Shown here piece by piece: positions 1 to 51,008 of a stretch of 64,000 bases of DNA. The position numbers and the translations under genes are program-made. A model generated the notes under the pieces. It had not been told where the DNA came from, did not search any database, and worked only from the letters and a program-made list of their open reading frames with translations. Source of the DNA: Eledone cirrhosa (taxonomy: Eukaryota); contig OZ024742.1 of the NCBI GenBank assembly GCA_964016885.1, positions 363,072,001 through 363,136,000 on the forward strand, read 5' to 3'. Position 1 is the first letter of the stretch, and every line of letters starts with the position of its first letter.

Positions 1-3000
1 ACGTACCTACTAACTACACAGACCTACTAACTACACAGACCTAGTAACTACTCAGACCTACTAACTACACAGACCTACTAACTACACAGACCTACTAACT
101 ACACAGACCTACTAACTACGCAGACCTACTAACTACTCAGACCTACTAACTACACAGACCTACTAACTACACAGACCTACTAACTACTCAGACCTACTAA
201 CTACACAGATCTACTAACTACACAGAGCTGCTAACTACACGTACCTACTAACTACACAGACTTACTAACTACACAGACCTAGTAAATACTCAGACCTACT
301 AACTACACAGACCTACTAACTACACAGACCTACTAACTACTCAGACCTACTAACTACACAGACCTACTAACTACACAGATCTACTAACTACTCAGACCTA
401 CTAACTACACAGACCTGCTAACTACACAGAACTGCTAACTACGCAGACATACTAACTAGACAGACATGCTAACTACCCAGACCTGCTAACTAGACAGATC
501 TGCTAACTACACAGACCTGCTAACTACACAGATCTGCTAACTACACAGACCTACTAACTACACAGACCTACTAACTACACAGACCTACTAACTACACAGA
601 CCTACTAACTACAGAAAACCTACTAATTAGACAGACCTGCTAACTACACAGACCTAGTAACAACACAGACCTACTAAATACACAGATCTACTAACTACAC
701 AGACTTACTAACTACACAGACCTACTAACTACACAGACCTGCTAACTACATATACCTGCTAACTACACAGACCTACTAACTACACAGAGCTGCTAACTAC
801 ACATACCTGCTAACTACACGGACATGCTAACTACACAGACCTACTAACTACACAGAGCTGCTAACTACACAGACCTGCTAACTACACAGACCTGCTAACT
901 ACACAGACCTACTAACTACACAGACCTACTAACTACACAGAGCTGCTAACTACACATACCTGCTAACTACACAGACCTACTAACTACACAGAGCTGCTAA
1001 CTACACTTACTTGCTAACTACACAGACCTGCTAACTACACAGACATGCTAACTACACAGATCTACTAACTACACAGACCTACTAACTACACTGACCTACT
1101 AACTACGCAGACCTGCTAAGTAAACAGACCTACTAACTATACAGAGCTACTAACTACACAGATATACTTACTACACAGACCTACTAACTACACAGATCTA
1201 CTAACTACACAGACCTGCTAACTACACAGACCTGCTAACTACACAGATCTGCTATCTACACAGACCTACTAACTACACAGACCTAGTAACTACACAGACC
1301 TGCTAACTACACAGACCTACTAACTAGACAGACCTACTAACTACACAGACCTCCTAACTACACAGACCTGATAACTTCACATACCTACTAACTACACAGA
1401 CCTACTAACTACAAAGACCTGCTAACTACACAGACCTGCTAACTACACAGACCTACTAACTACACAGACCTAGTAACTACACAGTCCTACTAACTACACA
1501 GATCTACTAACTAAACAGACATACTAACTACACAGACCTGCTAACTACACAGACCTGCTAACAACCTGCTAACTACACAGACCTACTAACTACACAGAAC
1601 TACCAACTACACAGAGCTGCTAACTACACATACCTGCTAACTACACAGACCTACTGACTACACAGAGCTGCTAACTACACTTACTTGCTAACTACACAGA
1701 CCTGCTAACTACACAGACCTGCTAACTACACATACCTGCTAACTACACAGACCTACTAACTACACAGAGCTGCTAACTACACTTACATGCTAACTACACA
1801 GACCTGCTAACTACACAGACCTGCTAACTACACTTACTTGCTAACTACACAGACCTACTAACTACAGAGACCTACTAACTACACAGATCTATTAACTACA
1901 CAGACCTGCTAACTAAACAGACCTACTAACTATACAGACCTACTAACTACACAGATATACTTACTACACAGACCTACTAACTACACAGATCTACTAACTA
2001 CACAGACCTGCTAACTACACAGACCTGCTAACTACACAGATCTGCTATCTACACAGACCTACTAACTACACAGACATAGTAACTACACAGACCTGCTAAC
2101 TACACAGACCTACTAACTAGACAGACCTACTAACTACACAAACCTCCTAACTACACAGACCTGATAACTTCACATACCTACTAACTACACAGACCTGCTA
2201 ACTACACAGACCTGCTAACTACACAGACCTGCTAACTACACAGACCTGCTAACAACCTGCTAACTACACAGACCTACTAACTACACAGAACTACTAACTA
2301 CACAGACCTGCTAACTACACAGTCCTGCTAACTACACAGACCTACTAACTGCAGAGATCTGCTAACTACACAGACCTACTAACTACACAGACCTACTAAC
2401 TACACAGACCTACTAACTACTCAGACCTACTAACTACACAGACCTACTAACTACACAGACCTACTAACTACTCAGACCTACTAACTACACAGATCTACTA
2501 ACTACACAGAGCTGCTAACTACACATACCTACTAACTACACAGACCTACTAACTACACAGACCTAGTAACTACTCAGACCTACTAACTACACAGACCTAC
2601 TAACTACACAGACCTACTAACTACTCAGACCTACTAACTACACAGACCTACTAACTACACAGATCTACTAACTACTCAGACCTACTAACTACACAGACCT
2701 GCTAACTACACAGAACTGCTAACTAGACAGATCTGCTAACTACACAGACCTACTAACTACACAGACCTACTAACTACACAGACCTACTAACTACACAGAC
2801 CTACTAACTACAGAAAACCTACTAATTAGACAGACCTGCTAACTACACAGACCTAGTAACAACACAGACCTACTAAATACACAGATCTACTAACTACACA
2901 GACTTACTAACTACACAGACCTACTAACTACACAGACCTGCTAACTACACATACCTGCTAACTACACAGACCTACTAACTACACAGAGCTGCTAACTACA

Positions 3001-6000
3001 CATACCTGCTAACTACACAGACCTGCTAACTACACAGACCTACTAACTACACAGAGCTGCTAACTACACAGACCTGCTAACTACACAGACCTGCTAACTA
3101 CACAGACCTACTAACTACACAGACCTACTAACTACACAGAGCTGCTAACTACACATACCTGCTAACTACACAGACCTACTAACTACACAGAGCTGCTAAC
3201 TACACTTACTTGCTAACTACACAGACATGCTAACTACACAGACCTGCTAACTACACATACCTGCTAACTACACAGACCTACTAACTACACAGAGCTGCTA
3301 ACTACACTTACTTGCTAACTACACAGACCTGCTAACTACACAGACCTGCTAACTACACAGACCTACTAACTACACAGACCTACTAACTACACAGACCTGC
3401 TAACTACACAGATCTACTAACTAATCAGATATAGTAACTACACAGACCTACTAACTACACAGACCTGCTAACTACACAGACCTGATAACTTCACATACCT
3501 GCTAACTACACAGATCGGCTAACTACACAGACCTACTAACTACACAGACCTGCTAACTACACAGACCAGCTAACTACACAGATCTACGAACTACACAGAC
3601 CTACTAATTACACAGACTTACTAACTACACAGACCTACTAACTACACAGACCTACTAACTACACAGACTTACCAACTAGACAGACCTGCTAACTACACAG
3701 ACCTTCTAACTACACAGACGTGTTAACACTGACCTGCTAAGTACACAGACGCACTACCTACACAGACCTACTAACTATACAGACCTACTAACTACAGAGA
3801 CCTTCTAACTACACAGACGTGTTAACACTGACCTGGTAACTACACAGACCTGCTACCTACACAGTCCTGCTAACTACACAGACCTACTAACTACACAGAC
3901 CTGCTAACCACACAGACCTACTAACTATACAGACCTACTAACTACAGAGACCTGCTAGCTATACAGATCTACTAACTACACAGATCTACTAACTACACAG
4001 ACCCACTAACTACACATACCTACTAACTACACAGAGCTGCTAACTACACATACCTGCTAACTACACAGACCTACTAACTACACAGACCTACTAACTACAC
4101 AGATCTACTAACTACACAGACCTACTAACTACTCTGACCTACTAACAATACAGACCTGCTAACTACACAGACCTACTAACTACCCAGGCCTAGTAACTAC
4201 ACAGATCTACTAACTAAACAGACATACTAACTACACAGACCTGCTAACTACACAGACCTGTTAACTACACAGAACTACTAACTACACAGACCTGCTAACT
4301 ACACAGAGCTGATAACTACAGAACCTGCTAACTACACAGACCTACTAACTACACAGACCTACTAACTACACAGACCTATTAACTACACAGACCTGCTAAC
4401 TACACAGACCTGCTAACTACACAGATCTACTAAATACACAGACTTACTAATTACACAGACCTGCTAACTACACAGACCTACACACTACACAGACCTGCTA
4501 ACTACACAGACCTGTTAACTATAGAGACCTACTAACTACACAGGCCTAGTAACTACACAGACCTACTAACTACACAGATCTACTAACTAAACAGACATAC
4601 TAATTACAAAACCTGCTAACTACACAGTCCTGCTAACTACAGAGATCTACTAACTGCAGAGATCTGCCAACTACACAGATCTGCTCACTGCACAGATCTG
4701 CTAACTACACAGACCTACTAACTACACAGAACTACTAACTACACAGACCTGTTAACTACATAGACCTGCTAACTAGACAGACTTGTAAACTACACAGACC
4801 TGGTAACTACAGAACCTGCTAACTACACAGACCTACTAACTACACAGACCTACTAACTACACAGACCTCCTAACTACACAAACCTGCTAACTACACAGAC
4901 CGACAAACTACACAGACCTACTAACTACACAGATCAACTAACTACACAGAGCTACTAACTACTCAGATCTCCTAATTACACAGACCTGCTAACTACACAG
5001 ACCTACTAATTTCACAACCTACTAACTACACAGACCTACTAACTACACAGATCTACTAAATACACAGACTTACTAATTACACAGACCTGCTAACTACACA
5101 GACCTACACACTACACAGACCTGCTAACTACCTAGACCTGCTAACTACACAGACCTGCTAACTACACAGATCTACGAACTACACAGACCTACTAATTACA
5201 CAACCTACTAACTACACATACCTACTAAATACACAGATCTACTAACTAGACACACCTGCTAACTACACATACCTGATAACTACACAGACCTGCTAACTAC
5301 ACAGACCTACTAACTACACAGACCTACTAACTACACATACCTACTAACTACACAGACCTGCTATCTACACAGACCTACTAATTACACAACCTACTAACTA
5401 CACATACCTACTAACTACACAAATCTACTAACTAGACACACCTGCTAACTACACAGACCTGCTAACTACACAGACCTACTAATTTCACAATCTACTAACT
5501 ACACATACCTGATAACTACACAGACCTGCTAACTACACAGACGCACTAATTACACAGACATGCTAACTACACAGACCTACTAACTATACAGACCTACTAA
5601 CTACACAGACCTACTAACTACACAGAGCTGCTAACTACACAGACCTACTAACTCTACAGATCTACTAACTACACAGATCTACTAACTACACAGAGCTGCT
5701 AACTACACATACCTGCTAACTACACAGACCTGCTAACTAGACAGACTTGTAAACTACACAGACCTGGTAACTACAGAACCTGCTAACTACACAGACCTAC
5801 TCAGTACACAGACCTACTAACTACACATACCTGATAACTACACAGACCTGCTAACTACACAGATCTACTAACTACACAGACCTACTAACTACACAGACCT
5901 GTTAACTACACAGACCGAAAACTACACAGACCTACTAACTACACAGATCAACTAACTACACAGACCTACTAATTACACAACCTACTAGCTACACAGACCT

Positions 6001-9000
6001 ACTAAATACACAGACGTACTTACTACACAGACCTGCTAACTACACAGCCCTACTAACTACACAGATATACTTACTACACAGACCTACTAACTACACAGAT
6101 CTACTAACTAGACACACCTCCTAACTACACAGACCTGCTAACTACGCAGACCTACTAATTTCACAACCTACTAACTACACATACCTGATAACTACACAGA
6201 CCTACTAACTACACAGACCTACTAACTACACAGACCTGCTAACTACACAGACCTACTAACTATACAGATCTACAAACTACACAGATCTACTAACTACACA
6301 GACCTACTAACTACACAGATCTACTAACTAAACAGATATAGTAACTACACAGACATACTACCTACACAGACCTGCTAACTACACAGACCTGATAACTTCA
6401 CATACCTGCTAACTACACAGATCGGCTAACTACACAGACCTACTAACTACACAGATCTGCTAACTACACAGACCAGCTAACTACACGGATCTACGAACTA
6501 CACAGACCTACTAATTACACAGACTTACTAACTACACAGACCTACTAACTACACAGACTTACCAACTAGACAGACCTGCTAACTACACAGACCTTCTAAC
6601 TACACAGACGTGTTAACACTAACCTGGTAACTACACAGACCTGCTACCTACGCAGTCCTGCTAACTACACAGACCTTCTAACTACACAGACCTGCTAACC
6701 ACACAGACCTACTAACTATACAGACCTACTAACTACAGAGACCTGCTAGCTATACAGATCTACTAACTACACAGATCTACTAACTACACAGACCCGCTAA
6801 CTACACATACCTACTAACTACACAGAGCTGCTAACTACACATACCTGCTAACTACACAGACCTACTAACTACACAGACCTACTAACTACACAGATCTACT
6901 AACTACACAGACCTACTAACTACTCTGACCTACTAACAATACAGACCTGCTAACTACACAGACCTACTAACTACCCAGGCCTAGTAACTACACAGATCTA
7001 CTAACTAAACAGACATACTAACTACACAGAACTGCTAACTACACAGACCTGTTAACTATAGAGACCTACTAACTACACAGGCCTAGTAACTACACAGACC
7101 TACTAACTACACAGATCTACTAACTAAACAGACATACTAACTACAAAGACCTGCTAACTACACAGTCCTGCTACCTACACAGTCCTGCTAACTACAGAGA
7201 CCTACTAACTGCAGAGATCTGCCAACTACACAGATCTGCTAACTGCACAGATCTGCTAACTACACATAACTACTAACTACACAGACCTGCTAACTACACA
7301 GAGCTGGTAACTACAGAACCTGCTAACTACACAGACCTACTAACTACACAGACCTACTAACTATACAGACCTACTAACTACAGAGACCTTCTAACTACAC
7401 AGACGTGTTAACACTGACCTGGTAACTACACAGAACTACTAACTACACAGACCTGCTAACTACACAGAGCTGGTAACTACAGAACCTGCTAACTACACAG
7501 ACCTACTAACTACACAGACCTACTAACTACACAGATCTACTAACTACACAGATCTACTAACTAAACAGACATACTAACTACACAGACCTGCTAACTACAC
7601 AGACCTATTAACTACACAGACCTGCTAACTACACAGACCTGCTAACTACACAGATCTACTAAATACACAGACTTACTAATTACACAGACCTGCTACCTAC
7701 ACAGACCTACACACTACACAGACCTGCTAACTACACAGACCTGTTAACTATAGAGACCTACTAACTACACAGGCCTAGTAACTACACAGACCTACTAACT
7801 ACACAGATCTACTAACTAAACAGACATACTAACTACAAAAACCTGCTAACTACACAGTCCTGCTAACTACAGAGACCTACTAACTGCAGAGATCTGCCAA
7901 CTACACAGATCTGCTAACTGCACAGATCTGCTAACTACACAGACCTACTAACTACACAGAACTACTAACTACACAGAGCTGCTAACTACATAGACCTGCT
8001 AACTAGACAGACTTGTAAACTACACAGACCTGGTAACTACAGAACCTGCTAACTACACAGACCTACTAACTACACAGACCTACTAACTACACAGACCTCC
8101 TAACTACACAAACCTGCTAACTACACAGACCGACAAACTACACAGACCGACAAACTACACAGACCTACTAACTACACAAATCAACTAACTACACAGAGCT
8201 ACTAACTACTCAGATCTCCTAATTACACAGACCTGCTAACTACACAGACCTACTAATTACACAACCTACTAACTACACAGACCTACTAACTACACAGATC
8301 TACTAAATACACAGACTTACTAATTACACAGACCTGCTAACTACACAGACCTACACACTACACAGACCTGCTAACTACACAGACCTGCTAACTACACAGA
8401 CCTGCTAACTACACAGATCTACGAACTACACAGACCTACTAATTACACAACCTACTTACTACACAGACCTACTAACTACACAGATCTACTAACTAGACAC
8501 ACCTGCTAACTACACATACCTGATAACTACACAGACCTACTAACTATACAGATCTACTAACTACACAGATCTACTAACTACACAGACCTGCTAACTACAC
8601 ATACCTACTAACTACACAGAGCTGCTAACTACACATACCTGCTAACTACACAGACCTACCTAACTAGACAGACTTGTAAACTACACAGACATGGTAACTA
8701 CAGAACCTGCTAACTACACAGACCTACTAAGTACACAGACCTACTAACTACACAGACCTGCTAACTACACAGACCTGCTAACTACATAGACCTACTAACT
8801 ACACAGATCAACTAACTACACAGACCTACTAACCGCTCAGATCTCCTAACTACACAGACCTGCTATCTACACAGACCTACTAATTACACAACCTACTAAC
8901 TACACAGACCTACTAACTACACAAATCTACTAAATACACAGACGTACTTATTACACAGACCTGCTAACTACACAGCCCTACTAACTACACAGATATACTA

Positions 9001-30075: not shown

Positions 30076-30289
30076 TAAATAGAAACGAGTTTATGTCGTC
30101 ACGTTTCAACCACTAATGATTACAACCATCCATCAAAGAACACTTCGTATAAATAAATATATATCTATATATATATCTATCTATCTATATATATATATAC
30201 AGTTGATGACAGTTAATGTGTGATGCTGAAAGCGTCCGTATGCAGTAGGCCGTTAGAGCACTCGATGCTCTTACAGAGCAGAGTATAAT

Positions 30290-30540
30290 GTCACGTAAGA
30301 CACGGAGAATCAGTGGTGCGACGAATTAAAATTTATTAGACATATTACAATCGTTTCTCTGGCGACCACCTAGAGGCACCATCGATACGATAATCGACCG
30401 TAGCCCTGAAATCGCAAGATCCTTAGATACGTCATGATCATCGCATCGATCGTGCCTTGAGCTGGTCGCCAGAGACACGATTGTAATATGTCTAATAAAT
30501 TTTAATTCGTCGCACCAATGATTGCCTGTTTCTTTTGTGA
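30290..30540. repeat. Foldback inverted repeat with ~100-bp arms, next to (TA)n
   Basis: TGGTGCGACGAATTAAAATTTATTAGACATATTACAATCG (~30314-30353) is mirrored by CGATTGTAATATGTCTAATAAATTTTAATTCGTCGCACCA (~30478-30517). Looser pairing extends both ways. Confidence 0.85.
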
Positions 30541-30579
30541 TATATATATATATATATATATATATAGATAGATAGATAT

Positions 30580-33390: not shown

Positions 33391-33840
33391 ATGTATATGT
33401 ATATATTTCGCCTCCTCTGTCGTGTCAGTTAACTCTTCCTTACACTTCCACTCACTCACTCACTGTTTCTCCTCTCCTCACTCCACCCCGTTCGTAACGA
33501 AAGCAATTTCTCTCTTTCTTACATTGCATTCGTTTGCGAAAGGTCTTTTTTCTAAGCGCTCATATATTCACCTAGCTTACGCTAACAGAATAACTATGAA
33601 GCTTGTTTCCTTCCTCTACGGTTAGCTCTACTCTTTGTTGTTTTCCTGTCTCACTCGCTTTACGCGTTTTAATTGTCCTAATAACTTAATTTAGTTATTA
33701 TTGCACCGACGTGAGGTATATGATTTTTAATGCAATGAAATATCTATGATCGTCGGCAAATCACTGATGAGGGACTTATTTTATTACATGTTATCCATGT
33801 GCTACCAGCAGTATTTTTCTCCCCATTTTATCATATATAT

Positions 33841-34915
33841 ACAAAGAGAAGTGTGTTACACAGTGAGATGTGTGTAAAGAATTATTACGAGTGGTTTTAC
33901 CGTTACTGTATAGGAAACAACATCTACAGGTTAGCAATTAAATAGAAAAAAAACCAATTCAGAATCAAATCTCTGGATTAGAGTTTTAAATCACAAACGT
34001 TATAACTATATTTTGCTGATACAAATCTCGTTCGTTTCACCACCTATATGTGAAGTATATCAGGTCACAGGATCCTCAGTCAGAAAATGCGAGCACTGAA
34101 CACTACACATCTAACCTCATGAATAGAGGGATTGCTAATAGACACGCTGGCCAGAGTGGGCGAAATCACGTGCTATTTGCATCAAATAACGACTCTCATG
34201 GATTGGGGAAGACGCTAGATTTTTACACACATCTCACTGTGTAACACACTTCTCTTTGTGTAATATATACTTGCATTTGAGCTCAGAAGGACATTCTCTA
34301 TCCTCCCTTGAGCTAATTCTATTATTATTATTACAGTGAACTGCGGAATACTCTTAATTCCGATCTTTGTATACTTAATGAGCTCCAAATTGTTGAGCTA
34401 ATAAATTCGAATGGTTGGGCTGCACTTTCTAGCGTCTTCCCCAATCCATGAGAGACGTTATTTGATGCAAATAACACGTGATTTCGCCCACTCTGGCCAG
34501 CGTGTCTATTAGCAATCTCTCTATCCATGAGGTTAGATGTGTAGTGTTCAGTGCTCGCATTTTCTGACTGAGGATCCTGTGACCTGATATACTTCACATA
34601 TAGGTGGTGAAACGAACGAGATTTGTATCAGCAAAATATAGTTATAACGTTTGTGATTTAAAACTCTAATCCAGAGATTTGATTCTGAATTGTTTTTTTT
34701 CTATTTAATTGCTAACCTGTAGATGTTGTTTCCTATACAGTAACGGTAAAACCACTCGTAATAATTCTTTACACACATCTCACTGTGTAACACACTTCTC
34801 TTTGTGTAATATATACTTGCATTTGAGCTCAGAAGGACATTCTCTATCCTTCCTTGAGCTAATTCTATTATTATTATTACAGTGAACTGCGGAATACTCT
34901 TAATTCCGATCTTTG
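33841..34915. mobile_element. PLE-type rearranged repeat: ~380-bp near-perfect inverted arms (33841-34219 and 34428-34805) plus a ~150-bp direct repeat (34222-34373 and 34768-34918)
   Basis: The near-identical ORFs 34050+ and 34597- are mirror images. The arms were compared by eye. Inverted plus direct partial pLTR copies are typical of PLE insertions. Confidence 0.75.
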
Positions 34916-35193
34916 TATATATATATATAAACGGAAAAAATGAAACGAAATTTCATTTCGCACTCTTAGTACGGCTGTTACTTAAATATAAGTATGTAGA
35001 CGTACATACATATATGTATACAGACGTACAGTAGTATGTATATATATATACATACATGCACACATATATATATGTACGTATGGATTCACCGAACATTTAT
35101 TATAATGCTCGGTGTGTTTGTAAACAAACATTCCGTATTAAGCCGTAGTGTCCAGCAACCATCGTTGCTCGTTTGTTCAACACTGACAAAGGA

Positions 35194-35236
35194 ACGCTGT
35201 ACTAGTTTCAAGCTTATTAGCTATCGTCCGCAACGT
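35194..35236 (-). ncRNA. Minimal type I hammerhead ribozyme with a core mutation (CGGACGA)
   Basis: Minus strand reads ACGTTG-CGGACGA-TAGCT AATA AGCTT-GAAA-CTAG-TA-CAGCGT. Stem I is intact and the CUGA core is mutated. Confidence 0.6.
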
Positions 35237-35598
35237 ATACCTTCCTGCCAGATTGTTGAACGTATATACTTATCTTATGCATATTAACGACTGAGTAGCC
35301 CAATTTGCATATCGAGTGGGTTAATCGGCCGGGTGCACCGAAAACGATAAACGGAAAAAATGAAACGAAATTTCATTTTCCACTCTTAGTACGGCTGTTA
35401 CTAAAATATAAGTATGTACACGTACATACATATATGTATACAGACGTACAGTAGTATGTATCTATATATACATACATGCACACATATATATATGTACGTA
35501 TGGATTCACCGAACATTTATTATAATGCAAATTGGGCTACTCAGTCGTTAATATGCATAAGGTAAGTATATACGTTCAACAATCTGGCAGGAAGTTAT

Positions 35599-35641
35599 AC
35601 GTTACTGACGATAGCTAATAAGCTTGAAACTAGTACAGCGT
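35599..35641 (+). ncRNA. Minimal type I hammerhead ribozyme
   Basis: ACGTTA-CTGACGA-TAGCT AATA AGCTT-GAAA-CTAG-TA-CAGCGT has CUGANGA and GAAA cores, an AGCT/AGCT stem II, a palindromic ACTAGT stem III and a GUA cleavage triplet. There is one A-C mismatch at the base of stem I. Confidence 0.72.
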
Positions 35642-35871
35642 TCCTTTGTCAGTGTTGAACAAAAGAGCAACGATGGTTGCTGGACACTACGGCTTAATAC
35701 GGGATGTTTGTTTACAAACACACCGAGCATTATAATAAATGTTCGGTGAATCCATACGTACATATATATATGTGTGCATGTATGTATATATATATACACA
35801 CTACTGTACGTCTGTATACATATATGTATGTACGTCTACATACTTATATATATATATTTATATATATATAC

Positions 35872-35942
<71 letters not shown>

Positions 35943-36108: not shown

Positions 36109-36142
<34 letters not shown>

Positions 36143-36268: not shown

Positions 36269-36325
<57 letters not shown>

Positions 36326-36985: not shown

Positions 36986-37273
36986 CTCCCAGGTACTTAA
37001 GCCAGAATTTATATTAGACCCAGGGTTTTGACAGAATTTATATTAGACTTAAACATTGTAACTGATGTGTTTCTCATATTTGATCATTCGGATATAAGTA
37101 GTTGGAAGGTCGGCGTTCTACTGCAACTCCTGGTTGAGTGCACCTAAAGACCTTATGTTCGACGTTTGGAATATGGGCAATGCCATTCTTTCTTTCAGAG
37201 GGAAAAAGAGCAGAAACAAAGTAGAAAAGACATAATTTAAGTGAAAATGTGCAAGAGAGATAGATGGACAGAC

Positions 37274-37314
<41 letters not shown>

Positions 37315-37315
37315 T

Positions 37316-38220
37316 CTTTCTTTATTTCCACAGGGGCGTACAAAAATGACGTGACGGCGGGGTTTTACATAAAATGTTTAACAATGATAAATAACAATAA
37401 ACTATATAAAAATATAACAATTGAAATCCCCATTGGAAGGGGGGGGGGGGGTGATGCTACTGCGGGGTTGTTTTACACCCCGTGGATAGAACAACCCTCG
37501 ACACCAGGAACACGTTTTGTTGGTGTTCCCGTCTTCCCTCTGCTTATCTTCCTCAACCTACAGGTTTATATACATAGAAGGCCCATTCACCCCGGACATT
37601 TTCGCCACATTCACCCACCTTTCAGCAAATTTACTGGGGTGTAGCACCTTTCTCTCCACTCTCACCTTCCTTCTGAAGTGATACTTAAAGAATGGGATAA
37701 GTTGTTGTCCGGAGAGAAAGGTACTTGCCCTCAGTCCTTTTAACCTCGTCCACCATATTACCTCTTTCGCCATAGCCACCAGACAGAGGAAGACCGCCTC
37801 TCCTTCATTCTTAAATGAAGGCGGCGGCGTGATCCTCACGATGGACTCGGCTGACAACTGGATACGTCCCACACGTGACAGTAGCTGTTCGACATAATTC
37901 CACAGGTCGGTCACCCCTGGGCACTGAACAATTGCATGCAGAACGGTTTCGTGTCCTGCTCACATCTTGGACAGGTCCTTTTGGCAGGATCTATGCCAGC
38001 GCGTCCGTGCCTGTAGATTTTGTATCGAACTGCTAGAGCTCCTCGGTAGCACTGCCAGGTCAGAGACCTCTGGAAGTTATCCATTGGCCCTGGACGGAAA
38101 GTCCTCCCGAACAGACTAGCCAGTTCGTATTCCTCGATGCCTAGAGTTTCCCCGAGAACGTCGAAGTGGAGTCTCAGCTGATTCCCGTTTCCGCTTTGTA
38201 GAGGGCTGTGGACGCCTGAA
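37316..38220 (-). mobile_element. 5'-truncated, frameshifted Tx1/L1-clade LINE (ORF2 C-terminus plus 3'UTR)
   Basis: ORF 37558-37914 is a clear paralogue of the C-terminus of the 489-aa ORF (DLWxYVEQLLSRVG...MAKEVxWWTRLKGLR). The minus-strand 3' end AATAAAGAAAG is followed by (TATC)n. Confidence 0.88.
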
Positions 38221-38253
38221 TGCAGATAGATGGATAGATATGTAGATAGATAG

Positions 38254-40047
38254 ATTTCTTTTATTTGCCACTAGGGCATCAAAAGTGGGACAAGTACAAA
38301 GGGGGGAGTTTACACAAAAAGGCGTCCTCAATAAGGAGGAGGCAATAACAAAATATAAAAATAAAATAAGATATAACAAAAAATAAAATTTTTAACAAAA
38401 TCCTCAATAGAGAGGAGGCGCCTTGGGGGGTCGCACACACCCCCGAAAAAAGTGTGCAACCCTTCTCCTCAGGAGCACAGAGAAGGGGTGCTCCCTTGGT
38501 CTTTCATCTTCCTCACCTATAGTCTGATGTAGAGTGAAGACCCATTCACACGGGCCATTCTCGCCACTTTCACCCATCTTTCATAGAAACGGCTGGGGTG
38601 CAGCACCTCTCTCTCCATCCTGATCCTTCTTCCGAAATGATATCGGAAGAAACGGACCAGTTGTTGGCCAGAGAGAAAGGTGCCCGACCTCAGTCCTTTC
38701 AGACGCGTCCACCATACAACCTCTTTCGCCATGGCTATTACGCACAGAAACACCGCCTCTGCTTCATCTTTGAAGGGGGGAGGCGGCTTGATCATTACAA
38801 TAGACTCGGTGGTCAACCGCATCGGTCCCACCCTTGACAGCAGTTGTTCGACATAGCCCCACAGATCGGCTACGCCCGAGCAGTGTACTAATGCGTGTGC
38901 AACGGTTTCCTCGTCGCACACGCATCTGGGACAGATCTTTTTGGCGGGGTCCCTACCCGGGCGCCCGTGTCTGTAGAGCCTTTCTCGAACGGGTAAAGCC
39001 CCTCGGTAGCACTGCCAGGCCAGGGACTTCTGGAAGTTGTCCATAGGTCCCGGGCTGAATGTCCTACCGAACAGGCTGGCCAGTTCGTCCTCCTCCATGT
39101 CTAGGGCTTCTCCGAGGGCGTCGTCGCACCTGCTGCGCACCAGCCCTCTATAGAATGTTGCGGTGGAGTCTCCACTGATAACCGGATCCGCCTGCCAGAG
39201 GGCGGTGAGCGCCTGGGCACACTCAGTGTGCCAGGCGCCCAGTTTTCTCGGTCTTTGCTTGACCCAGGATTGCAGCTCGGTGAGTGAGACGAGTCTGGGA
39301 AAGGTTCGTCTCACAAACGAGGCCCACACCGGTTGTCCGGTGAGGAATACGTAGAGGTGCCGTAGCCTTAATGCGTGTTTACGCATCATTAGCCACGGCA
39401 TCCCCAGCCCTCCTTTCGAAGGGTGTTGACAGCAGATGGATCTCCTCACCATAGGAGCCCGCCTCTTCCAAAGGAATTGGAAGAGCGCGCGCTCCATCTT
39501 GGTGAGGGTTTCCCTTGGGCAGGGCACTACGGTCAGGCGGTAGTAGATGACGGACGCTATGTAGGTGTTCGCCACCTCCGCCCGACCTTTCAGGGATAGT
39601 TTGCAACTGGCCCACTTCTGGGTCACTGCAAACACCCTGTTCGTAACCTCCGCCCAGTTTTTCTCCACCTGGAGGTCCGGTCCGAACCAGACCCCGAGCA
39701 ACTTCACCGGGCCCTCCGTCCAGCGTCCGACGACGCTATCGGAGGGCATCGGTCTGCCCCTCCACGTGCCGAGTTGCAAACCGATCGACTTGTCCCGGTT
39801 CAGCTTAGCCCCTGTGAACTTTTCGTACTCCTCCAGTAAGGTGCCGACCGCCTCGATTTCGGAGGCCGTCGACACCATTACTGTCACGTCATCGGCGTAG
39901 GCCGACACCGCTTTCCGCAATCCCGGTTCCAAAGGGATGCCCTGCAACAACTCCAACTTCCGCAGTAGTGGCTCGAGAGTCAACACATACAGAAGGGAGG
40001 AGAGAGGGCACCCTTGTCGGATGGACCGCGCGATTTTGAACGGGGTG
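38254..40047 (-). mobile_element. 5'-truncated Tx1/L1-clade LINE
   Basis: Contains the RT ORF and a 3'UTR ending in AATAAAAGAA. Both ends abut (GATA)n. Confidence 0.92.
38517..40046 (-). CDS. Non-LTR retrotransposon ORF2 fragment: reverse transcriptase C-half plus zf-RVT-type cysteine motif
   Basis: The frame stays open upstream of the called start (PFKIARSIRQGCPLSSLLYVLTLEP). It contains AYADD, GAKLNRDKS, LLGVWF, LSLKGRAEVANT, GGLG and CPRC...ETVAHALVHC. There is no native start codon. Confidence 0.93.
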   Translation of the reverse strand, partial: TPFKIARSIRQGCPLSSLLYVLTLEPLLRKLELLQGIPLEPGLRKAVSAYADDVTVMVSTASEIEAVGTLLEEYEKFTGAKLNRDKSIGLQLGTWRGRPMPSDSVVGRWTEGPVKLLGVWFGPDLQVEKNWAEVTNRVFAVTQKWASCKLSLKGRAEVANTYIASVIYYRLTVVPCPRETLTKMERALFQFLWKRRAPMVRRSICCQHPSKGGLGMPWLMMRKHALRLRHLYVFLTGQPVWASFVRRTFPRLVSLTELQSWVKQRPRKLGAWHTECAQALTALWQADPVISGDSTATFYRGLVRSRCDDALGEALDMEEDELASLFGRTFSPGPMDNFQKSLAWQCYRGALPVRERLYRHGRPGRDPAKKICPRCVCDEETVAHALVHCSGVADLWGYVEQLLSRVGPMRLTTESIVMIKPPPPFKDEAEAVFLCVIAMAKEVVWWTRLKGLRSGTFLSGQQLVRFFRYHFGRRIRMEREVLHPSRFYERWVKVARMARVNGSSLYIRL

Positions 40048-40084
40048 TAGATAGATAGTTAGATAGGTAGATATCTGGAGAGAG

Positions 40085-40170
<86 letters not shown>
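40048..40170. repeat. (GATA)n followed by (GA)n microsatellite
   Basis: Read directly from the sequence. Confidence 0.95.
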
Positions 40171-40172
<2 letters not shown>

Positions 40173-40683
40173 ACAAAGAGAGAGGTGAAATATTTATTTT
40201 AAACTAAAATAGTTTAGTGTTGTGGTAATTCTAGTAGCAGATTTTACTGAAATTATGTTCCTCTCAATAGGTAGAGTATCGTTGGAACTTCACAATCTCT
40301 TATTAAACCATATTTTGTCATATTGAACTTCTCTGTGTCCGATAATACTTTACTCAGGAAAATATGAATGACATCACCAGCATCACATTAAACCTTATAG
40401 TTAACTATAGTTCTAATATTTCTCAAGTACTAAGCCATATATTTGATGATTTCAGAGTAAATATTATATATTCAAAGCTACGGCGTGATACCATTTCAAA
40501 GATTCTGAACTGACATTTTGGTGTGTGCTACAATAGATCAAATACACCAGAGTGCACACGAAAGGGAACTTAGATTATAATTTATTGTTAACTGTATATA
40601 ATATTTGTAAACACACTTGGTCTTATCACCATTACAGTGTGTTATATATATCAAACTTGCAGTGTATTATTTAGGCCACAAAA

Positions 40684-41055
40684 AGGGTGGATTGCCGGCA
40701 TCGGTAGAGCGTCGCACAAAATGACTTGTGTCATACATCTACGGCGCTTTACGTTCTGATGTAAGCTTTGCCTTTCATCCTTACGAGGTCGATAAAATAA
40801 TACAAAATTAATGCACTCTCGTCGATTTAATCGACTTTCCCCCCTCAAAATGGTTGGCTTTGTGCTTGGATTGGCAGTATCGGTAGAGGGACGGACGCCA
40901 TGCTTTGACGAATAGAGTTACGGCCCTTGCCATTCTGAGTTCAAATCCCGCCGAGGTTAACTTTGCCTTTCGTCCTTACGGGGTCGATAAAATAAAGTAC
41001 CAGTAATACACTGGAATAATTGCTGGCCTTGTGCCAAAAGTATAAACAATTATTA
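40684..41055 (+). mobile_element. Two adjacent tRNA-derived SINE copies (40684-40867 degenerate, 40868-41055 better preserved)
   Basis: A box TGGCAGTATCGGTAGA, B box GAGTTCAAATCCC and the body motif TTGCCTTTCRTCCTTACGGGGTCGATAAAATAAAGTACCAG, which recurs across the window. Ends in an ATTATT tail. Confidence 0.88.
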
Positions 41056-41430
41056 AGACCACAAGTATTAGAGTAATTGACCCGAAGTAATTCTTCAGAT
41101 TTCTGCATTCTTTGTTTAAAATACTGCTATGGTTAACGTTACCTTTCATTGTTTCAAAGTCTGTAAATTGATTATTTAGGGCGGAGGATTGTGGGAAAAG
41201 TGAATGGGTTTAAAGTGTTACTTAATGGTATCAAACTTTTGCTTTCTGACATCGTAACTGATGCCAACATATATTATTCTGTGTCATTGCCATGGACATT
41301 ATCAGAGTTGCAATGAGCTAATGTTTTGTCCTCAAACAATTGTTTATTGGCCTTATCCTTGGAGACGAACTTTCTGATACAGACATAGGGAGACCCCACA
41401 TTTTATTAGTAAACTTTCAATAAGGGTGAT

Positions 41431-41817
41431 GTTTGGTAAAACCATTGAAACATTAGGCAAGATGCTTTGTAGCATTTTTCCCTTCTTCTGAGTTCTAATA
41501 CCACCGAAGTCAACTCTGTCTTCTATTCTCCGGGGTTGATAAATTAAAGTATCAGTAAAGTGAATTAGTGGGTATAATTGACCTCCCACCTCCAGAAATA
41601 ATCGACATCTTCCTAAGTTAGAAACCATTATTTTGCAGTACCCGCCAAGGTTAACTTTGCCTTTCATCCTTACGGGGTCGAAAAAATAAAGTACCAGTAA
41701 TACACTGGGTACTTGCTGGCCTTGTGCCAAAAGTAGAAACAATTATTTTGCAGTACCAGTAAGGCACTGGGTAATTGCTGGCCTTGTGCCTAAAGTAGAA
41801 ACAATTATTTTGCAGTA
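41431..41817 (+). mobile_element. SINE cluster: an old degenerate copy plus a 5'-truncated younger copy with a duplicated 3' end
   Basis: Same body motif at ~41657. ATTATTTTGCAGTA repeats at ~41627, 41742 and 41804. Confidence 0.8.
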
Positions 41818-42355
41818 TATTACTAACCTTATAGTAGGTTTTCAAATTAACAATTTCTACATAATCTCACGGTGCATTAATGAACAATCTTATTGACAGA
41901 TACGATACATTATTAAAGTATTTCCTTAATTCGATCTCATCTGAACTCAGTTTAATAAAACATTTTCTCTTTGAATACACGTCTTTGATGAAGAAATTCT
42001 TTGTTCATTTTGAAGTAAATAGATATTTAAAGTTAACACTGTTATTGTAATTAATTTGCTTATATCCGAAGTACATAAACATTAAATGGCTAAAACGTGT
42101 CGGCAGTCAATTAACAAGATGTTTGGAGTGTATAAATGTTGATTACTATTTATTAGCCAGTGTGTGTGTGTATGCGTGATGTGTGGGTGTGGTTGGGGGT
42201 GGGGGTGTAAGTGTGTGTGTATGTGTGTGTATAATTTTGTATAAGTAACTATGTCGCTCCTCCACTTTCTCTCTCTGGTTCTATATATCAGCCCCTTCTT
42301 ACACACACTGTTTTGAATATGTATGTATTTGTGCACACACACACACACACACATA

Positions 42356-42435
<80 letters not shown>

Positions 42436-42549
42436 AGTGTGTGTGTGTGTGGATGTGTGTATCAATGAGACAAGTAAAATGAGTCAATAGAACATTTAGA
42501 TTAATGTTAATAGTTATAAAAAACATAAGAATAATAATAAAATGATGAT

Positions 42550-45500
42550 GTGAATGAGTAGGAAAGTGAGAAAGTTGAGAAATACCAGGAAACTATGGAT
42601 AATTAGACATGTAGAAGTGGTACCGACTGTGGTTGGTACACTGGGAGTAGTTGGTAGGTTAGACATGTAGAAGTGGTACCGACTGTGGTTGGTACACTGG
42701 GAGTAGTTGGTAGGTTAGACATGTAGAAGTGGTACCGACTGTGTTTGGTGTACTGGGAGTAGTTAGTAGGTTAGACATGTAGAAGTGGTACCGACTGTGG
42801 TTGGTACACTGGAAGTAGTTAGTAGGTTAGACATGTAGAAGTGGTACCGACTGTGGTTGGTACACTGGAAGTAGTTAGTAGGTTACACATGTAGAAGTGG
42901 TACCGACTGTGGTTGGTACACTGGGAGTAGTTGGTAGGTTAGACATGTAGAAGTGGTACCGACTGTGTTTGGTGTACTGGGAGTAGTTAGTAGGTTAGAC
43001 ATGTAGAAGTGGTACCGACTGTGGTTGGTACACTGGGAGTAGTTGGTAGATTAGACATGTAGAAGTGGTACCGACTGTGGTTGGTACACTGGGAGTAGTT
43101 GGTAGGTTAGACATGTAGAAGTGGTACCGACTGTGTTTGGTGTACTGGGAGTAGTTAGTAGGTTAGACATGTAGAAGTGGTACCGACTGTGGTTGGTACA
43201 CTGGAAGTAGTTAGTAGGTTAGACATGTAGAAGTGGTACCGACTGTGGTTGGTACACTGGAAGTAGTTAGTAGGTTAGACATGTAGAAGTGGTACCGACT
43301 GTGGTTGGTACACTGGGAGTAGTTGGTAGGTTAGACATGTAGAAGTGGTACCGACTGTGTTTGGTGTACTGGGAGTAGTTAGTAGGTTAGACATGTAGAA
43401 GTGGTACCGACTGTGGTTGGTACACTGGGAGTAGTTGGTAGGTTAGACATGTAGAAGTGGTACCGACTGTGTTTGGTGTACTGGGAGTAGTTAGTAGGTT
43501 AGACATGTAGACGTGGTACCGACTGTGGTTGGTACACTGGGAGTAGTTGGTAGGTTAGACATGTAGAAGTGGTACCGACTGTGTTTGGTGTACTGGGAGT
43601 AGTTAGTAGGTTAGACATGTAGAAGTGGTACCGACTGTGGTTGGTACACTGGAAGTAGTTAGTAGGTTAGACATGTAGAAGTGGTACCGACTGTGGTTGG
43701 TACACTGGAAGTAGTTAGTAGGTTACACATGTAGAAGTGGTACCGACTGTGGTTGGTACACTGGAAGTAGTTAGTAGGTTAGACATGTAGTAGTGGTACC
43801 GACTGTGGTTGGTGTACTGGGTGTAGTTAGTAGGTTACACATGTAGTAGTGGTACCGATTGTGGTTGGTGTACTGGGTGTAGTTAGTAGGTTACACATGT
43901 AGTAGTGGTACCGACTGTGGTTGGTGTACTGGGTGTAGTTAGTAGGTTAGACATGTAGTAGTGGTACCGACTGTGGTTGGTGTACTGGGTGAAGTTAGTA
44001 GGTTAGACATGTAGTAGTGGTACCGATTGTGGTTGGTGTACTGTGTGTAGTTAGTAGGGTAGACATGTAGTAGTGGTACCGACTGTGGTTGGTGTACTGG
44101 ATGTAGTTAGTAGGTTAGACATATAGTAGTGGTACCGACTGTGGTTGGTGTACTGGGAGTAGTTGGTAGGTTAGACATGTAGTAGTGGTACCGACTGTGG
44201 TTGGTGTACTGGGTGTAGTTAGTAGGTTAGACATGTAGTAGTGTTACCGACTGTGGTTGGTGTACTGGGTGTAGTTAGTAGGTTAGACATGTAGTGGTGG
44301 TACCGACTGTGGTCGGTGTATTAGGAGTAGTTAGTAGGTTAGACATGTAGTAGTGGTACCGACTGTGGTTGGTGTACTGGGTGTAGTTAGTAGGTTAGAC
44401 ATGTAGTAGTGGTACCGACTGTGGTTGGTGTACTGGGAGTAGTTAGTAGGTTAGACATGTAGTAGTGGTACCGACTGTGGTTGGTGTACTGGGTGTAGTT
44501 AGTAGGTTAGACATGTAGTAGTGGTACCGACTGTGGTTGGTGTACTGGGTGTAGTTAGTAGGTTAGACATGTAGTAGTGGTACCGACTGTGGTTGGTGTA
44601 CTGGGTGTAGTTAGTAGGTTAGACATGTAGTAGTGGTACCGATTGTGGTTGGTGTACTGGGTGTAGGTAGTAGGTTAGACATGTAGTAGTGGTACCGACT
44701 GTGGTTGGTGTACTGGGTGTAGTTAGTAGGTTAGACATGTAGTAGTGGTACCGACTGTGGTTGGTGTACTGTGTGTAGTTAATAGGTTAGACATGTAGTA
44801 GTGGTACCGATTGTGGTTGGTGTACTGGGTGTAGTTAGTAGGTTAGACATGTAGTAGTGGTACGACTGTGGATGGTGTACTAGGAGTAGTTAGTAGTTTA
44901 GACATGTAGTAGTGGTACCGACTGTGGTTGGTGTACTAGGAGTAGTTAGTAGTTTAGACATGTAGAAGTGCTACCAATTGTGGTTGGTGTACTGGAAGTA
45001 GTTAGTTGGTTAGACATCTAGAAGTGGAACCATGTGTGGTCGGTGTACTGGGGTAGTTATTAGCTTAGACATGTAGTAGTGGTGCGATTATGCTTGGTGT
45101 ACTGGTAGTAGTTAGAAGGATACACATGTAGTAGTGGTACCGACTGTGGTTGGTGTACTGGGAATAGTTAGTAGATTAGACATGTAGTAGTGGTACCGAC
45201 TGTGGTTGGTGTACTAGGAGTAGTTATTAGGTTAGACATGTAGTAGTGGTATAATGTGTGGTTGGTTTACTAGGAGTAGTTAGTAGGTTAGACATGTAGA
45301 AGTGGTACCGATGTGGTTGGGCTACTGGGAGTAGTTAGTAAGTTAGACATGTAGTAGTTGTACCGACTGTGGTAGGTACAGTGGGAGTAATTACTAGGTT
45401 ACACATGTAGAAGTGGTATCGGCTGTGGTTGGTGTACTAGGACTAGTTAGTAGGTTATTCATGTAGAAGTGGTACCATGTGTGGTTGGTGTACTGGGAGT

Positions 45501-48500
45501 AGTTAGTAGGTTAGATATGTAGAAGTGTTACCGACTGTGGTTGGTACACTGGGAGTAGTTAGTAGGTTAGACATGTAGTAGTGGTACCGACTGTGGTTAG
45601 TGTACTGGGAGTAGTTAGTAGGTTAGACATGTAGAAGTGGTACCGACTGTGGTTGGTACACTAGGATTAGTTAGTAGGTTCGACATGTAGTAGTTGCATC
45701 GACTGTAGTTAGTGTACTGGGTGTATTTAGTAGGATAGACATGTAGAAGTGGTACCGATTGTGGTTGGTGTACTAGGAGTAGTTGGTAGGTTAGACATGT
45801 AGAAGTGGTACCGACTGTGGTTGGTACACTGGGAGTAGTTAGTAGGTTAGACATGTAGAAGTGGTACCGACTCTGGTTGGTACACTGGGAGTAGTTAGTA
45901 GGATAGACATGTAGAAGTGGTACCGACTGTGGTTAGTGTACTGGGAGTAGTTAGTAGGATAGACATGTAGAAGTGGTACCGACTGTGGTTGGTACACTGG
46001 GAGTAGTTAGTAGGTTAGACATGTAGAAGTGGTACCGACTGTGGTTGGTGTACTGGGAGTAGTTAGTAGGGTAGACATGTAGAAGTGGTACCGACTGTGG
46101 TTGGTGTACTGGGAGTAGTTAGTAGGTTAGACATGTAGAAGTGGTACCGACTGTGGTTAGTGTACTGGGAGTAGTTAGTAGGATAGACATGTAGAAGTGG
46201 TACCGACTGTGGTTAGTGTACTGGGAGTAGTTAGTAGGATAGACATGTAGAAGTGGTACCGTCTGTGGTTGGTACACTGTGAGTAGTTAGTAGGTTAGAC
46301 ATGTAGAAGTGGTACCGACTGTGGTTAGTGTACTGGGAGTAGTTAGTAGGATAGACATGTAGTAGTGGTACCAACTCTGGTTGGTGTATTAGGAGTAGTT
46401 AGTAGGTTAGACATGTAGTAGTGGTACCGACTGTGGTCGGTGTATTAGGAGTAGTTAGTAGGTTACATATGTAGTAGTTGTACCGACTGTGGTTGGTGTA
46501 CTGGGAGTAGTTAGTAGGTTAGACATGTAGTAGTGGTACCGACTGTGGTTGGTGTACTGGGAGTAGTTGGTAGGTTAGACATGTAGTAGTGGTACTGACT
46601 GTGGTTGGTGTATTAGGAGTAGTTAGTAGGTTACATATGTAGTAGTGGTACCGACTGTGGTTGGTGTACTAGGAGTAGTTAGTAGGTTAGACATGTAGTA
46701 GTGGTACCGACTGTGGTTGGTGTACTAGGAGTAGTTATTAGGTTAGACATGTAGTAGTGGTATAATGTGTGGTTGGTGTACTAGGAGTAGTTAGTAGGTT
46801 AGACATGTAGAAGTGGTACCAATTGTGGTTGGGCTACTGGGAGTAGTTAGTAAATTAGACATGTAGTAGTTGTACCGACTGTGGTAGGTACAGTGGGAGT
46901 AATTACTAGGTTACACATGTAGAAGTGGTATCGGCTGTGGTTGGTGTACTAGGACTAGTTAGTAGGTTATTCATGTAGAAGTGGTACCATGTGTGGTTGG
47001 TGTACTGGGAGTAGTTAGTAGGTTAGATATGTAGAAGTGGTACCGACTGTGGTAATTACACTAGGATTAGTTAGTAGGTTAGACATGTAGTAGTGGCATC
47101 GACTGTGGTTAGTGTACTTGGTGTATTTAGTAGGATAGACATGTAGAAGTGGTACCGATTGTGGTTGGTGTACTAGGTGTAGTTGGTAGGTTAGACATGT
47201 AGAAGTGGTACCGACTGTGGTTGGTACACTGGGAGTAGTTAGTAGGTTAGACATGTAGTAGTGGTACCGACTGTGGTTGGTACACTGGGAGTAGTTAGTA
47301 GGTTAGACATGTAGAAGTGGTACCGACTGTGGTTGGTACACTGGGAGTAGTTAGTAGGTTAGACATGTAGAAGTGGTACCGACTCTGGTTGGTACACTGG
47401 GAGTAGTTAGTAGGATAGACATGTAGAAGTGGTACCGACTGTGGTTAGTGTACTGGGAGTAGTTAGTAGGATAGACATGTAGAAGTGGTACCGACTGTGG
47501 TTGGTGTACTGGGAGTAGTTAGTAGGGTAGACATGTAGAAGTGGTACCGACTGTGGTTGGTACACTGGGAGTAGTTAGTAGGGTAGACATGTAGAAGTGG
47601 TACCGACTCTGGTTAGTGTACTGGGAGTAGTTAGTAGGATAGACATGTAGAAGTGGTACCGACTGTGGTTGGTGTACTGGGAGTAGTTGGTAGGTTAGAT
47701 ATGTAGAAGTGGTACTGACTGTGGTTGGTGTACTGTGAGTAGTTAGTAGGTTAGACATGTAGTAGTGGTACCAATTGTGGTTGGTGTACTGGGAATAGTT
47801 AGTAGGTTAGACATGTAGTAGTGGTACCGACTGTGGTTGATACACTGTGAGTAGTTAGTAGGTTAGACATGTAGTAGTGGTACCGACTGTGGTTAGTGTA
47901 CTAGGAATAGTTAGTAGGTTACATATGTAGAAGTGGTACCGACTGTGGTTGGTACACTGGGAGTAGTTGGTAGGTTAGACATGTAGAAGTGGTACCGACT
48001 GTGGTTGGTGTACTGGGAGTAGTTAGTAGGTTAGACATGTAGAAGTGGTACCGACTGTGGTTGGTACACTGGGAGTAGTTAGTAGGTTAGACATGTAGAA
48101 GTGGTACCGACTGTGGTTGGTACACTGGGTGTAGTTAGTAGGTTACACATGTAGTAGTGGTACCGACTATGGTTGGTGTACTGGGAGTAGTTGGTAGGGT
48201 AGACATGTAGAAGTGGTACCGACTGTGGTTGGTGTACTGGGTGTAGTTGGTAGGGTAGACATGTAGAAGTGGTACCGACTGTGGTTGGTGTACTGGGAAT
48301 AGTTAGTAGGTTAGACATGTAGTAGTGGTACCGACTGTGGTCGGTGTATTAGGAGTAGTTAGTAGGTTAGACATGTAGAAGTGGTACCAATTGTGGTTGG
48401 TGTACTGGGAATAGTTAGTAGGTTAGACATGTAGTAGTGGTACCGACTGTGGTTAGTGTACTAGGAATAGTTAGTAGGTTACATATGTAGTAGTGGTACC

Positions 48501-51008
48501 GACTGTGGTTGGTGTACTGCTAGTAGTTAGTAGGTTAGACATGTAGAAGTGATACCGACAGTGATTGGTATACTAGGAGTATTTAGTATGTTAGACATGT
48601 AGTATGGGTACCGACTGTGGTTGGTACACTGGGAGTAGTTAGTAGGTTAGACATGTAGAAGTGGCACCGACTGTGGTTGGTGTACTGGGTGTAGTTAGTA
48701 GGTTAGACATGTAGTAGTGGTACCGACTGTGGTTGGTACACTGGGAGTAGTTAGTAGGTTAGATATGTAGAAGTGGTACCGACTGTGGTTGGTACACTGG
48801 GAGTAGTTGGTAGGTTAGACATGTAGTAGTGGTACCGACTGTGGTTAGTGTACTAGGAATAGTTAGTACTTTAGACATCTAGAAGTGGTACCCACTGTTG
48901 TTGGTGTACTGGGAGTAGTTAGTAGGTTAGACATGTAGAAGTGGTACTGACTGTGGTTGGTGTACTAGGAGTAGTTAGTAGGTTAGACATGTAGAAGTGG
49001 TACCGACTGTGGTTGGTACACTGGGAGTAGTTGGTAGGTTAGACATGTAGTAGTGGTACCAATTGTGGTTGGTGTACTGGGAATAGTTAGTAGGTTAGAC
49101 ATGTAGTAGTGGTACCGACTGTGGTTAGTGTACTAGGAATAGTTAGTAGGTTACATATGTAGAAGTGGTACCGACTGTGGTTGGTACACTGGGAGTAGTT
49201 GGTAGGTTAGACATGTAGTAGTGGTACCGACTGTGGTTAGTGTACTAGGAATAGTTAGTACTTTAGACATCTAGAAGTGGTACCCACTGTTGTTGGTGTA
49301 CTGGGAGTAGTTAGTAGGTTAGACATGTAGAAGTGTTACCGACTGTGGTTGGTACACTGGGAGTAGTTAGTAGGTTAGACATGTAGAAGTGGTACCGACT
49401 GTGGTTGGTGTACTGGGAGTAGTTGGTAGGTTAGACATGTAGAAGTGGTACCGACTGTGGTTAGTACACTGGGAGTAGTTGGTAGGTTAGACATGTAGAG
49501 GTGGTAGCGACTGTGGTTGGTGTACTAGGAGTAGTTAGTAGGTTAGACATGTAGTAGTGGTACCGACTGTGGTTGGTACACTGGGAGTAGTAATCAGGTT
49601 AGGCATATAGTATTTGTATCATTTGTGGTTGGTACACTGGGAGTAGTTGGTAGGTTAGACATGTAGAAGTGGTACCGACTGTGGTTAGTACACTGGGAGT
49701 AGTTGGTAGGTTAGACATGTAGTAGTGGTACCGACTGTGGTTGGTACACTGGGAGTAGTTAGTAGGTTAGACATGTAGAACTGCTACCGACTGTGGTTGG
49801 TGTACTGGGAGTAGTTAGTAAGTTTCACATGTAGTAGTTGTACCGACTGTGGTTGGTGTACTGGGAGTAGTTAGTAGGTTAGACATGTAGTAGTGGTACC
49901 GACTGTGGTTGGTGTACAGGGAGTAGTTAGTAGGTTAGACATGTAGTAGAGGTACCGACTGTGGTTGGTGTACTGAGAGTAGTTAGTAGGTTAGTCATGT
50001 AGAAGTGGTACCGACTGTGGTTGGTACACTGGGAGTAGTTAGTAGGTTAGACATGTAGTAGTGGTACCGCCTGTGGTTGGTGTACTGGGAGTAGTTGGTA
50101 GGTTAGACTTGTAGAAGTGGTACCGAATGTGGTTGGTGTACTAGGGGTAGTTAGTACTTTAGACATCTAGAAGTGGTACCCACTGTGGTTGGTACACTGG
50201 GAGTAGTTAGTAGGTTAGACATGTAGTATTGGTACCGACTCTGGTTGGTACACTGGGAGTAGTTAGTAGGTTAGACATGTAGACGTGGTACCGACTGTGG
50301 TTGGTGTACTTGGAGTAGTTATTAGGTTAGGCATATAGTATTTGTACCAATTGTGGTTGGTACACTGGGAGTAGTTAGTAGGTTAGACATGTAGAAGTGT
50401 TACCGACTGTGGTTGGTACACTAGGATTAGTTAGTAGGTTAGACATGTAGTAGTGGTACCAATTGTGGTTGGTGTAATATGAGTAGTTAGTTGGTTAGAC
50501 ATGTGGAAGTGATACCGACTGTGATTGGTATACTAGGAGTATTTAGTAGGTTAAACATGTAGTAGTGGTACCGACTGTGGTTGGTGTACTGGGAGTAGTT
50601 AGTAGGTTAGACAGGTAGAAGTGTTACCGACTGTGGTTGGTGTACTAGGAGTAGTTAGTAGGTTAGACATGTAGTAGTGGTACCACTTGTGGTTGGTGTT
50701 CTAGGAGTAGTTAGTAGGTTAGACATGTAGAAGTGCTACCGACTGTGGTTGGTGTACTAGGAGTTGTAAGTAGAAGTTTTGATGCAAGGATTGAGAATTA
50801 CAAGCTGGATAGGATTGTTGTAGAAAACAGCCATGTTGGGAACAGCAAAGATTCTAAGGTGGTTTTGGGAAATTTGAAGGAGAAGAAAAAACCGAAAGGA
50901 CCTTTGGTTTTTGGTTATGTCTCGCTATCTTGGCATAGAATCGTTATAACATCTTCCAGAGCAAATTACAATTCGAAGACAGACAACAACAAGAACAAGA
51001 ATAATAAT
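42550..51008 (+). mobile_element. 3' fragment of an R4/Dong-type (RLE) non-LTR retrotransposon interrupted by its own satellite expansion
   Basis: Left flank translates VNE*ESEKVEKYQ / KLWIIRHVEVVPTVVGTLGVV. Right flank translates VLPTVVGVLGVVSRSFDARIE / IGLL*KTAMLGTAKILR, then a 3'UTR and a CAA/AAT tail. (AAT)n also lies on the left. Confidence 0.8.
42603..50765. repeat. 56-bp tandem satellite, about 145 copies: TTAGACATGTAG(A/T)AGTGGTACCGACTGTGGTTGGTRYACTGGGAGTAGTTAGTAGG
   Basis: Period of 56 read directly. Most monomers carry one GGTACC and one ACATGT site. Confidence 0.98.

Follow-up and report, generated by a model that had tools for sequence, protein, structure and literature searches.

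We analysed two tandem repeats in a 64,000-bp stretch of the Eledone cirrhosa genome (assembly GCA_964016885.1, contig OZ024742.1, positions 363,072,001 to 363,136,000; hereafter the window). One is a satellite with a 17-bp monomer (17-mer), and the other, 12.5 kb away, has a 56-bp monomer (56-mer) and is framed by the two ends of an inserted element. The original prediction stated that the two share a 15-bp core in opposite orientation, and offered two explanations: that the 17-mer is a second-generation satellite grown from the 56-mer, or that both carry a protein-binding motif. The features concerned, in window coordinates, are as follows.

5-30073, minus strand: 17-bp satellite array, 1775 monomers by wrap-around alignment, running off the window start
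42527-42538, plus strand: left target-site duplication, 12 bp, TAA-rich, identical to 50997-51008
42539-42602, plus strand: 5' remnant of the element, ~64 bp, running straight into the first 56-mer unit; apparent family resemblance to Dong/R4
42603-50774, plus strand: 56-bp tandem array, 146 units (142 of 56 bp, 4 of 55 bp), very probably an amplified segment of the element
43779-44842, plus strand: homogeneous block of 19 units, 16 of them with the T variant that lengthens the match to 15 bp
50719-50774, plus strand: terminal 56-mer unit, differing from the array consensus at 5 of 56 letters, with 50736 and 50768 nearly private to the locus
50775-50996, plus strand: 3' part of the element, ~220 bp, a decayed coding end and tail with diverged relatives in the contigs and reads of the species
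50997-51008, plus strand: right target-site duplication, 12 bp, identical to 42527-42538

The 56-bp array and its element

The target-site duplication bounds an element from 42539 to 50996, whose length points to 5' truncation; the duplicated 12-mer has one further copy in the window, at 63596. The element extends beyond the array on both sides, and the monomer is collinear with part of it. One copy of a SINE-like (short interspersed nuclear element) repeat sits directly after the right target-site copy. Within the array, a variant block at 45232-45790 recurs about 1.5 kb downstream (46743-47190), and the unit itself has a weak internal period of 18 bp (24 of 56 matches).

In order to see the locus against the rest of the genome we used public reads under the same species label, namely one run holding the 17-mer (share 0.23) and three restriction-site-associated DNA (RAD) runs. 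The run was the single 17-mer holder in a run search, in which the absence of other species from the listing is not evidence of absence; it also contains the 56-mer, which thus co-occurs with the 17-mer in one indexed holder of one species label. Aligning these data to 50700-51010 at 80% likeness gave 153 contigs and 55, 60 and 24 RAD reads. One contig, at a depth of 5.95, aligned to the locus along 305 bases and differed from it at 2. Summed contig depth over the 56-mer unit rose to 73,570, about 12,400 times that of the locus contig (a rough indication that does not give copy number), compared with 146 units here. Joints at which the sequence goes back by 56 bases were present in all three RAD runs (15, 14 and 4 reads), and in other contigs the sequence 3' of a 56-mer unit was not the one found here. 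The 56-mer family is present at high copy number; its unit is located in element sequence, and it has been amplified beyond this locus.

The 3' flank of the array also has relatives elsewhere, with a summed depth of up to 243 as against 5.95 for the locus contig. The four pieces listed differ from it by 12-14 in 71-79 bases (17-19%), and at single positions within 50807-50885 as many as 19 contigs differ. Eleven differences are listed over 50809-50874; one frame makes six of them synonymous (p 0.014 against an expected fraction of 0.21), and the other frames make three and two. The element's 3' end is a dispersed, coding-like repeat. The original prediction had suggested that the core is native retrotransposon coding sequence because its codons are synonymous with those of the terminal unit. 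The codon relation is as claimed, and the target-site duplication together with the dispersed flank and its synonymous excess is better evidence for the same view. Taken together, these findings make it very probable that the 56-mer originates from a mobile element.

The host element is probably a long interspersed nuclear element (LINE) of the Dong/R4 family. Translated, its flanks and unit appear similar to the C-terminus of Dong/R4 proteins, a resemblance that protein searches did not confirm. The TAA-rich 12-mer at both ends places the insertion in TAA repeats, as for Dong/R4. Only about 280 bp of the element plus one unit remain here, and reverse transcriptase is not among them. The intact flanks suggest that the locus is the birthplace of the 56-mer satellite. 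The terminal unit is not the exact parent of the array, which is ruled out by its locus-private letter at 50768.

The sequence shared by the two satellites

The 17-mer array keeps a single orientation over its whole length. Its monomers lie 7-9% from their own consensus, and this divergence is even over the 30 kb, with slightly greater homogeneity at the two ends than in the middle. Column 13 is dimorphic (T 56%, C 42%), and divergence is marginally higher in T13 than in C13 monomers, 0.065 versus 0.059, a gap too small to use. Kilobase-scale duplications with common variants lie inside the array at offsets of 2-9 kb (for example 2053, 3353, 4905 and 6958 bp). It could be argued that such an array is a telomerase-type or subtelomeric repeat whose match to the 56-mer is incidental, as it leaves the window at its start with the G-rich strand towards that end and in one orientation. 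However, the even divergence and the variant-sharing duplications indicate recombinational amplification, and we find this explanation hardly credible. In metagenomes, neither a 17-mer dimer nor the 56-mer pattern was found (0 loci each), a result that is uninformative for an animal repeat.

The predicted match between the two satellites is real but shorter than stated. The two consensus sequences, taken as circles, agree exactly over 13 bp, or over 8 bp if the C form of the 17-mer is used, and 15 bp are attained only with a minority variant of the 56-mer. That T variant is present in 16 of the 19 units of the homogeneous block, but in only 22/146 overall. The exact 15-mer occurs in 339/1775 17-mers, on their minus strand, and in 13/146 56-mers, and 11 of those 13 lie at 43779-44850, in agreement with the predicted concentration around 43800-44850. 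The exact 13-mer is found in 387/1775 17-mers and 71/146 56-mers.

How often such a match arises by chance was estimated by shuffling the 56-mer. Among 100,000 shuffles each, 7, 170 and 1093 reached at least 13 bp when mono-, di- and trinucleotides were preserved (p 7e-5, 2e-3 and 1e-2, respectively). Shuffling the 17-mer itself is degenerate, as it yields 300 and 36 different arrangements. Two exact, collinear blocks of the 56-mer consensus can account for all 17 bases of the 17-mer, and a 13-bp run with full two-block cover appeared in 2, 19 and 135 of 30,000 shuffles (mono-, di- and trinucleotide). The shuffle test put forward with the original prediction thus spoke for the match at the two lower orders, but less so once trinucleotides were kept. 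The match is beyond simple chance, though not overwhelmingly so, given the low complexity of the units and the size of the scan.

Coincidence is a possible, if doubtful, explanation. The 56-mer would be derived from the element and the 17-mer would have grown independently from a microsatellite of GTA/CA type, the 13-bp overlap being one of two low-complexity, G/T-rich units. Their strand compositions are near-equal (G 0.32/0.35, T 0.39/0.32, C 0.09/0.10), p climbs to 0.011 with trinucleotides kept, and microsatellites abound in the window, among them a TAC tract at 62539. Several alternative deletion routes from one unit to the other can be drawn, which we read as a sign of low complexity, and no junction, intermediate or common polymorphism was found in the window or in 21 of 60 loose-end rows from the public data. 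On the other hand, the lower-order shuffles gave p 7e-5 to 2e-3, and the higher-order nulls retain the core's own words. When 56-bp windows of DNA outside the arrays were circularised, none of 25,334 attained even 11 bp, the other bases of the 17-mer also form one block in the 56-mer, and only 12.5 kb separate the arrays.

The second predicted variant, GAG, is indeed present in both arrays (13/1775 17-mers and 49/146 56-mers), but it is uninformative. In the 17-mer the T>A change behind it occurs in 42/1775 monomers (11 of them in 14-bp deletion monomers), no more commonly than at columns 6 and 10 (41 and 35), and we therefore rejected it as a shared derived character. The commonest two variants of the 17-mer (columns 13 and 16) would be synonymous third-position changes in the element's frame, probably by chance.

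One recognised motif, comparable to the CENP-B box, could have favoured both repeats. The existence of the shared word is the sole point in favour of this proposal, whereas the core showed no extra conservation in either array. In the 56-mer its variation is 5.1% per column compared with 7.1% elsewhere (p 0.98), and in the 17-mer it varies more than the rest (10.1% versus 7.1%) and contains the most variable column. The exact 13-mer, moreover, is carried by a minority of 17-mers and about half of 56-mers, as counted above. We consider a shared protein-binding motif very unlikely.

Possible origin of the 17-mer in the 56-mer

At columns 47, 50 and 56 the array differs from the terminal unit, each time towards the 17-mer. 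The bare element appears to have only 8-9 bases in common with the 17-mer, and by sequence the full 13 would require the array letters and the unit junction. As the full match seems tied to the array form and not to the bare element, the evidence is best read as the 17-mer having arisen from the 56-mer, to which we assign a probability of about 0.5. On this reading, the element would have inserted into a TAA tract by target-primed reverse transcription; slippage or unequal exchange would then have duplicated 56 bp near the end of the coding region, and the unit would have spread as a satellite. Point changes and the new unit junction would have completed the 13-bp word, after which a deletion product of the 56-mer may have seeded the 17-mer, which would have been amplified separately. 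The shared word would need no function.

The three columns could also be explained by transfer in the other direction. Ectopic conversion by an older 17-mer, using the 8-9 bases that it has in common with the element, may have replaced the end of the 56-bp unit; alternatively, both satellites may have arisen separately from copies of the same LINE. The shift of all three columns towards the 17-mer and the greater diversity of the 17-mer array favour such a history. However, at position 50768 (column 50) the array letter makes up 3493.4/3499.3 of contig depth and 42/42 RAD reads; the letter of the terminal unit is private, which indicates decay of an edge unit and not a change towards the 17-mer. 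Column 46 has a letter unlike that of the 17-mer, C, in arrays elsewhere (454.6/3548.5 of depth, or 13%, and 14/45 RAD reads), as against 0/146 units here. The C form, 42% of 17-mers, is found in 1/146 units. Reverse transfer or separate origins of this kind are in our view unlikely.

At position 50765 the depth without the array letter is 97.7, near the 91.8 of contigs continuing past 50777, so element copies at large are probably without the array letter. Since column-46 C occurs in arrays elsewhere, the 56-mer family includes letters less like the 17-mer than those seen here, as expected on a stepwise path from 56 to 17. Together with the private letter at 50768, these depths and states fit better with stepwise change followed by deletion than with a patch copied from the 17-mer. 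The timing also permits descent, because the element differs from its relatives by more than the 7-9% by which 17-mers depart from their consensus.

Several observations weigh against descent. No remnant of the non-core 56-mer of at least 10 bp was found in the 17-mer array, and the junction word of the 17-mer occurs 0 times in the 56-mer array compared with 382 in its own. No 17-mer junction was present among 21 of 60 loose-end rows from the public data. Polymorphism is not common to the arrays: C at column 13/53 is carried by 738/1775 17-mers but 1/146 56-mers, and G at column 11/51 by 16/1775 17-mers but 24/146 56-mers. The trinucleotide-preserving p is only ~0.01, and the pair was chosen out of a very large scan. 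Diversity (pi) was 0.156 in the 17-mer, 0.109 in the whole 56-mer array and 0.041 in the T block; the 17-mer, being more diverse than that block, is not derived from it in its present state, and the longer, 15-bp match cannot be due to such a derivation. Finally, protein searches with the short, decayed element end gave no true hit, and the LINE family is unconfirmed. Overall, a second-generation origin of the 17-mer is plausible but unproven.

A number of candidates were tried and rejected. The sole candidate for a 19-bp intermediate is a substitution in a normal monomer, and the resemblance of the 17-mer boundary flank to the element was equalled in score by 2181/5000 shuffles. A route combining the two more frequent A variants of the 17-mer was dropped, as they stand together in only 10 junctions compared with 274 and 128 singly. 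Four 17-mers with A4 and C6 resemble the C46 form of the 56-mer; they are possibly copies of one or two events and were not counted. The three hits of the element end in protein searches were repeat proteins, not LINE relatives.

The birth of new satellite monomers is usually inferred from partial homology. The window may, tentatively, hold a pedigree of three steps in one stretch: the coding end of a Dong/R4 LINE, the birthplace of the 56-mer framed by a target-site duplication, and a second-generation 17-mer 12.5 kb away. If true, the intact parent flanks, the target-site duplication and a possible shorter daughter would make a datable and polarised case. If the link to the 17-mer is chance, an ordinary transposon-derived satellite remains.

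Other repeats and known systems

The rest of the window is also repetitive, with plentiful microsatellites. A 513-codon stop-free frame on the minus strand (38517-40058) is a LINE fragment with matches to the RVT_1 and zf-RVT domains; among its matches with an animal name, the best is to Argonauta hians (60% identity), which, with the octopus-like SINE and microsatellite landscape, fits an octopod host. Beside it, a decayed second copy was spotted by eye at ~37320-38200, and both fragments are edged by AGAT-type microsatellites, which suggests that the microsatellite is an insertion target. About 200 bp from the boundary of the 17-mer array lies an inverted repeat of 113 bp with 86% identity (30284-30395 and 30436-30548). 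By eye, large duplications, inverted, direct and nested, occupy ~33840-35830, where 34225 and 34771 have a common 19-bp dimer. The SINE-like repeat was seen by eye in many copies (~40760-41050, 41640-41817, 51020-51225, 58100-58220, 60540-60720, 61790-61910 and 63680-63760), and its tail makes a 62-bp tandem dimer at 41690-41817. Related dispersed repeats were seen by eye at 51860-51990 and 62840-63190, with an inverted arrangement at ~63020-63060. An Rfam search of 30074-64000 gave no match.

Transposon-derived satellites are a well-known phenomenon, and the present case follows a known route. In the texts consulted, mostly open-licence, we found no description of either repeat or of a Dong-derived satellite, although supplements such as the repeat library of PMC13282606 may list them; nor did we find a satellite study of the host group in the open-licence literature.

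Satellites from LINE coding or 3' regions include HinfI (CR1 ORF II, chicken), PROsat and the common cetacean satellite (L1), and 18HT (HeT-A/TART) (PMC9659126). As in those cases, the tandem unit described here would come from a non-LTR (long terminal repeat) retrotransposon and have been amplified as a satellite. In contrast to them, element flanks and a target-site duplication here surround 146 units, and a shorter satellite may descend from these. Arrays born inside LTR retrotransposons are described for CRM1TR and CRM4TR of maize (PMC3648361) and for Lathyrus satellites (PMC7004042). There too the array lies inside a retrotransposon, and deletion and gene conversion were proposed as mechanism, whereas the parents are LTR elements (the LTR and untranslated region in maize) and not, as is likely here, a non-LTR coding end in an animal.

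With regard to the parent, Dong is an element of the R4 lineage with its 5' junction following TAA repeats (PMC3774820), and Dong-R4 elements are described as numerous in coleoids, with recent activity in Octopus vulgaris (PMC8967140, PMC13282606). The junction in TAA repeats and, likely, the host group are the same here. Unlike those elements, ours is known from ~280 bp and one unit, a fragment without reverse transcriptase and without a database match. The limpet satellite PcH-Sat, suggested to derive from a Nin-SINE (PMC11121367), is likewise a molluscan satellite of retroelement origin, but its parent is a SINE and its host a gastropod.

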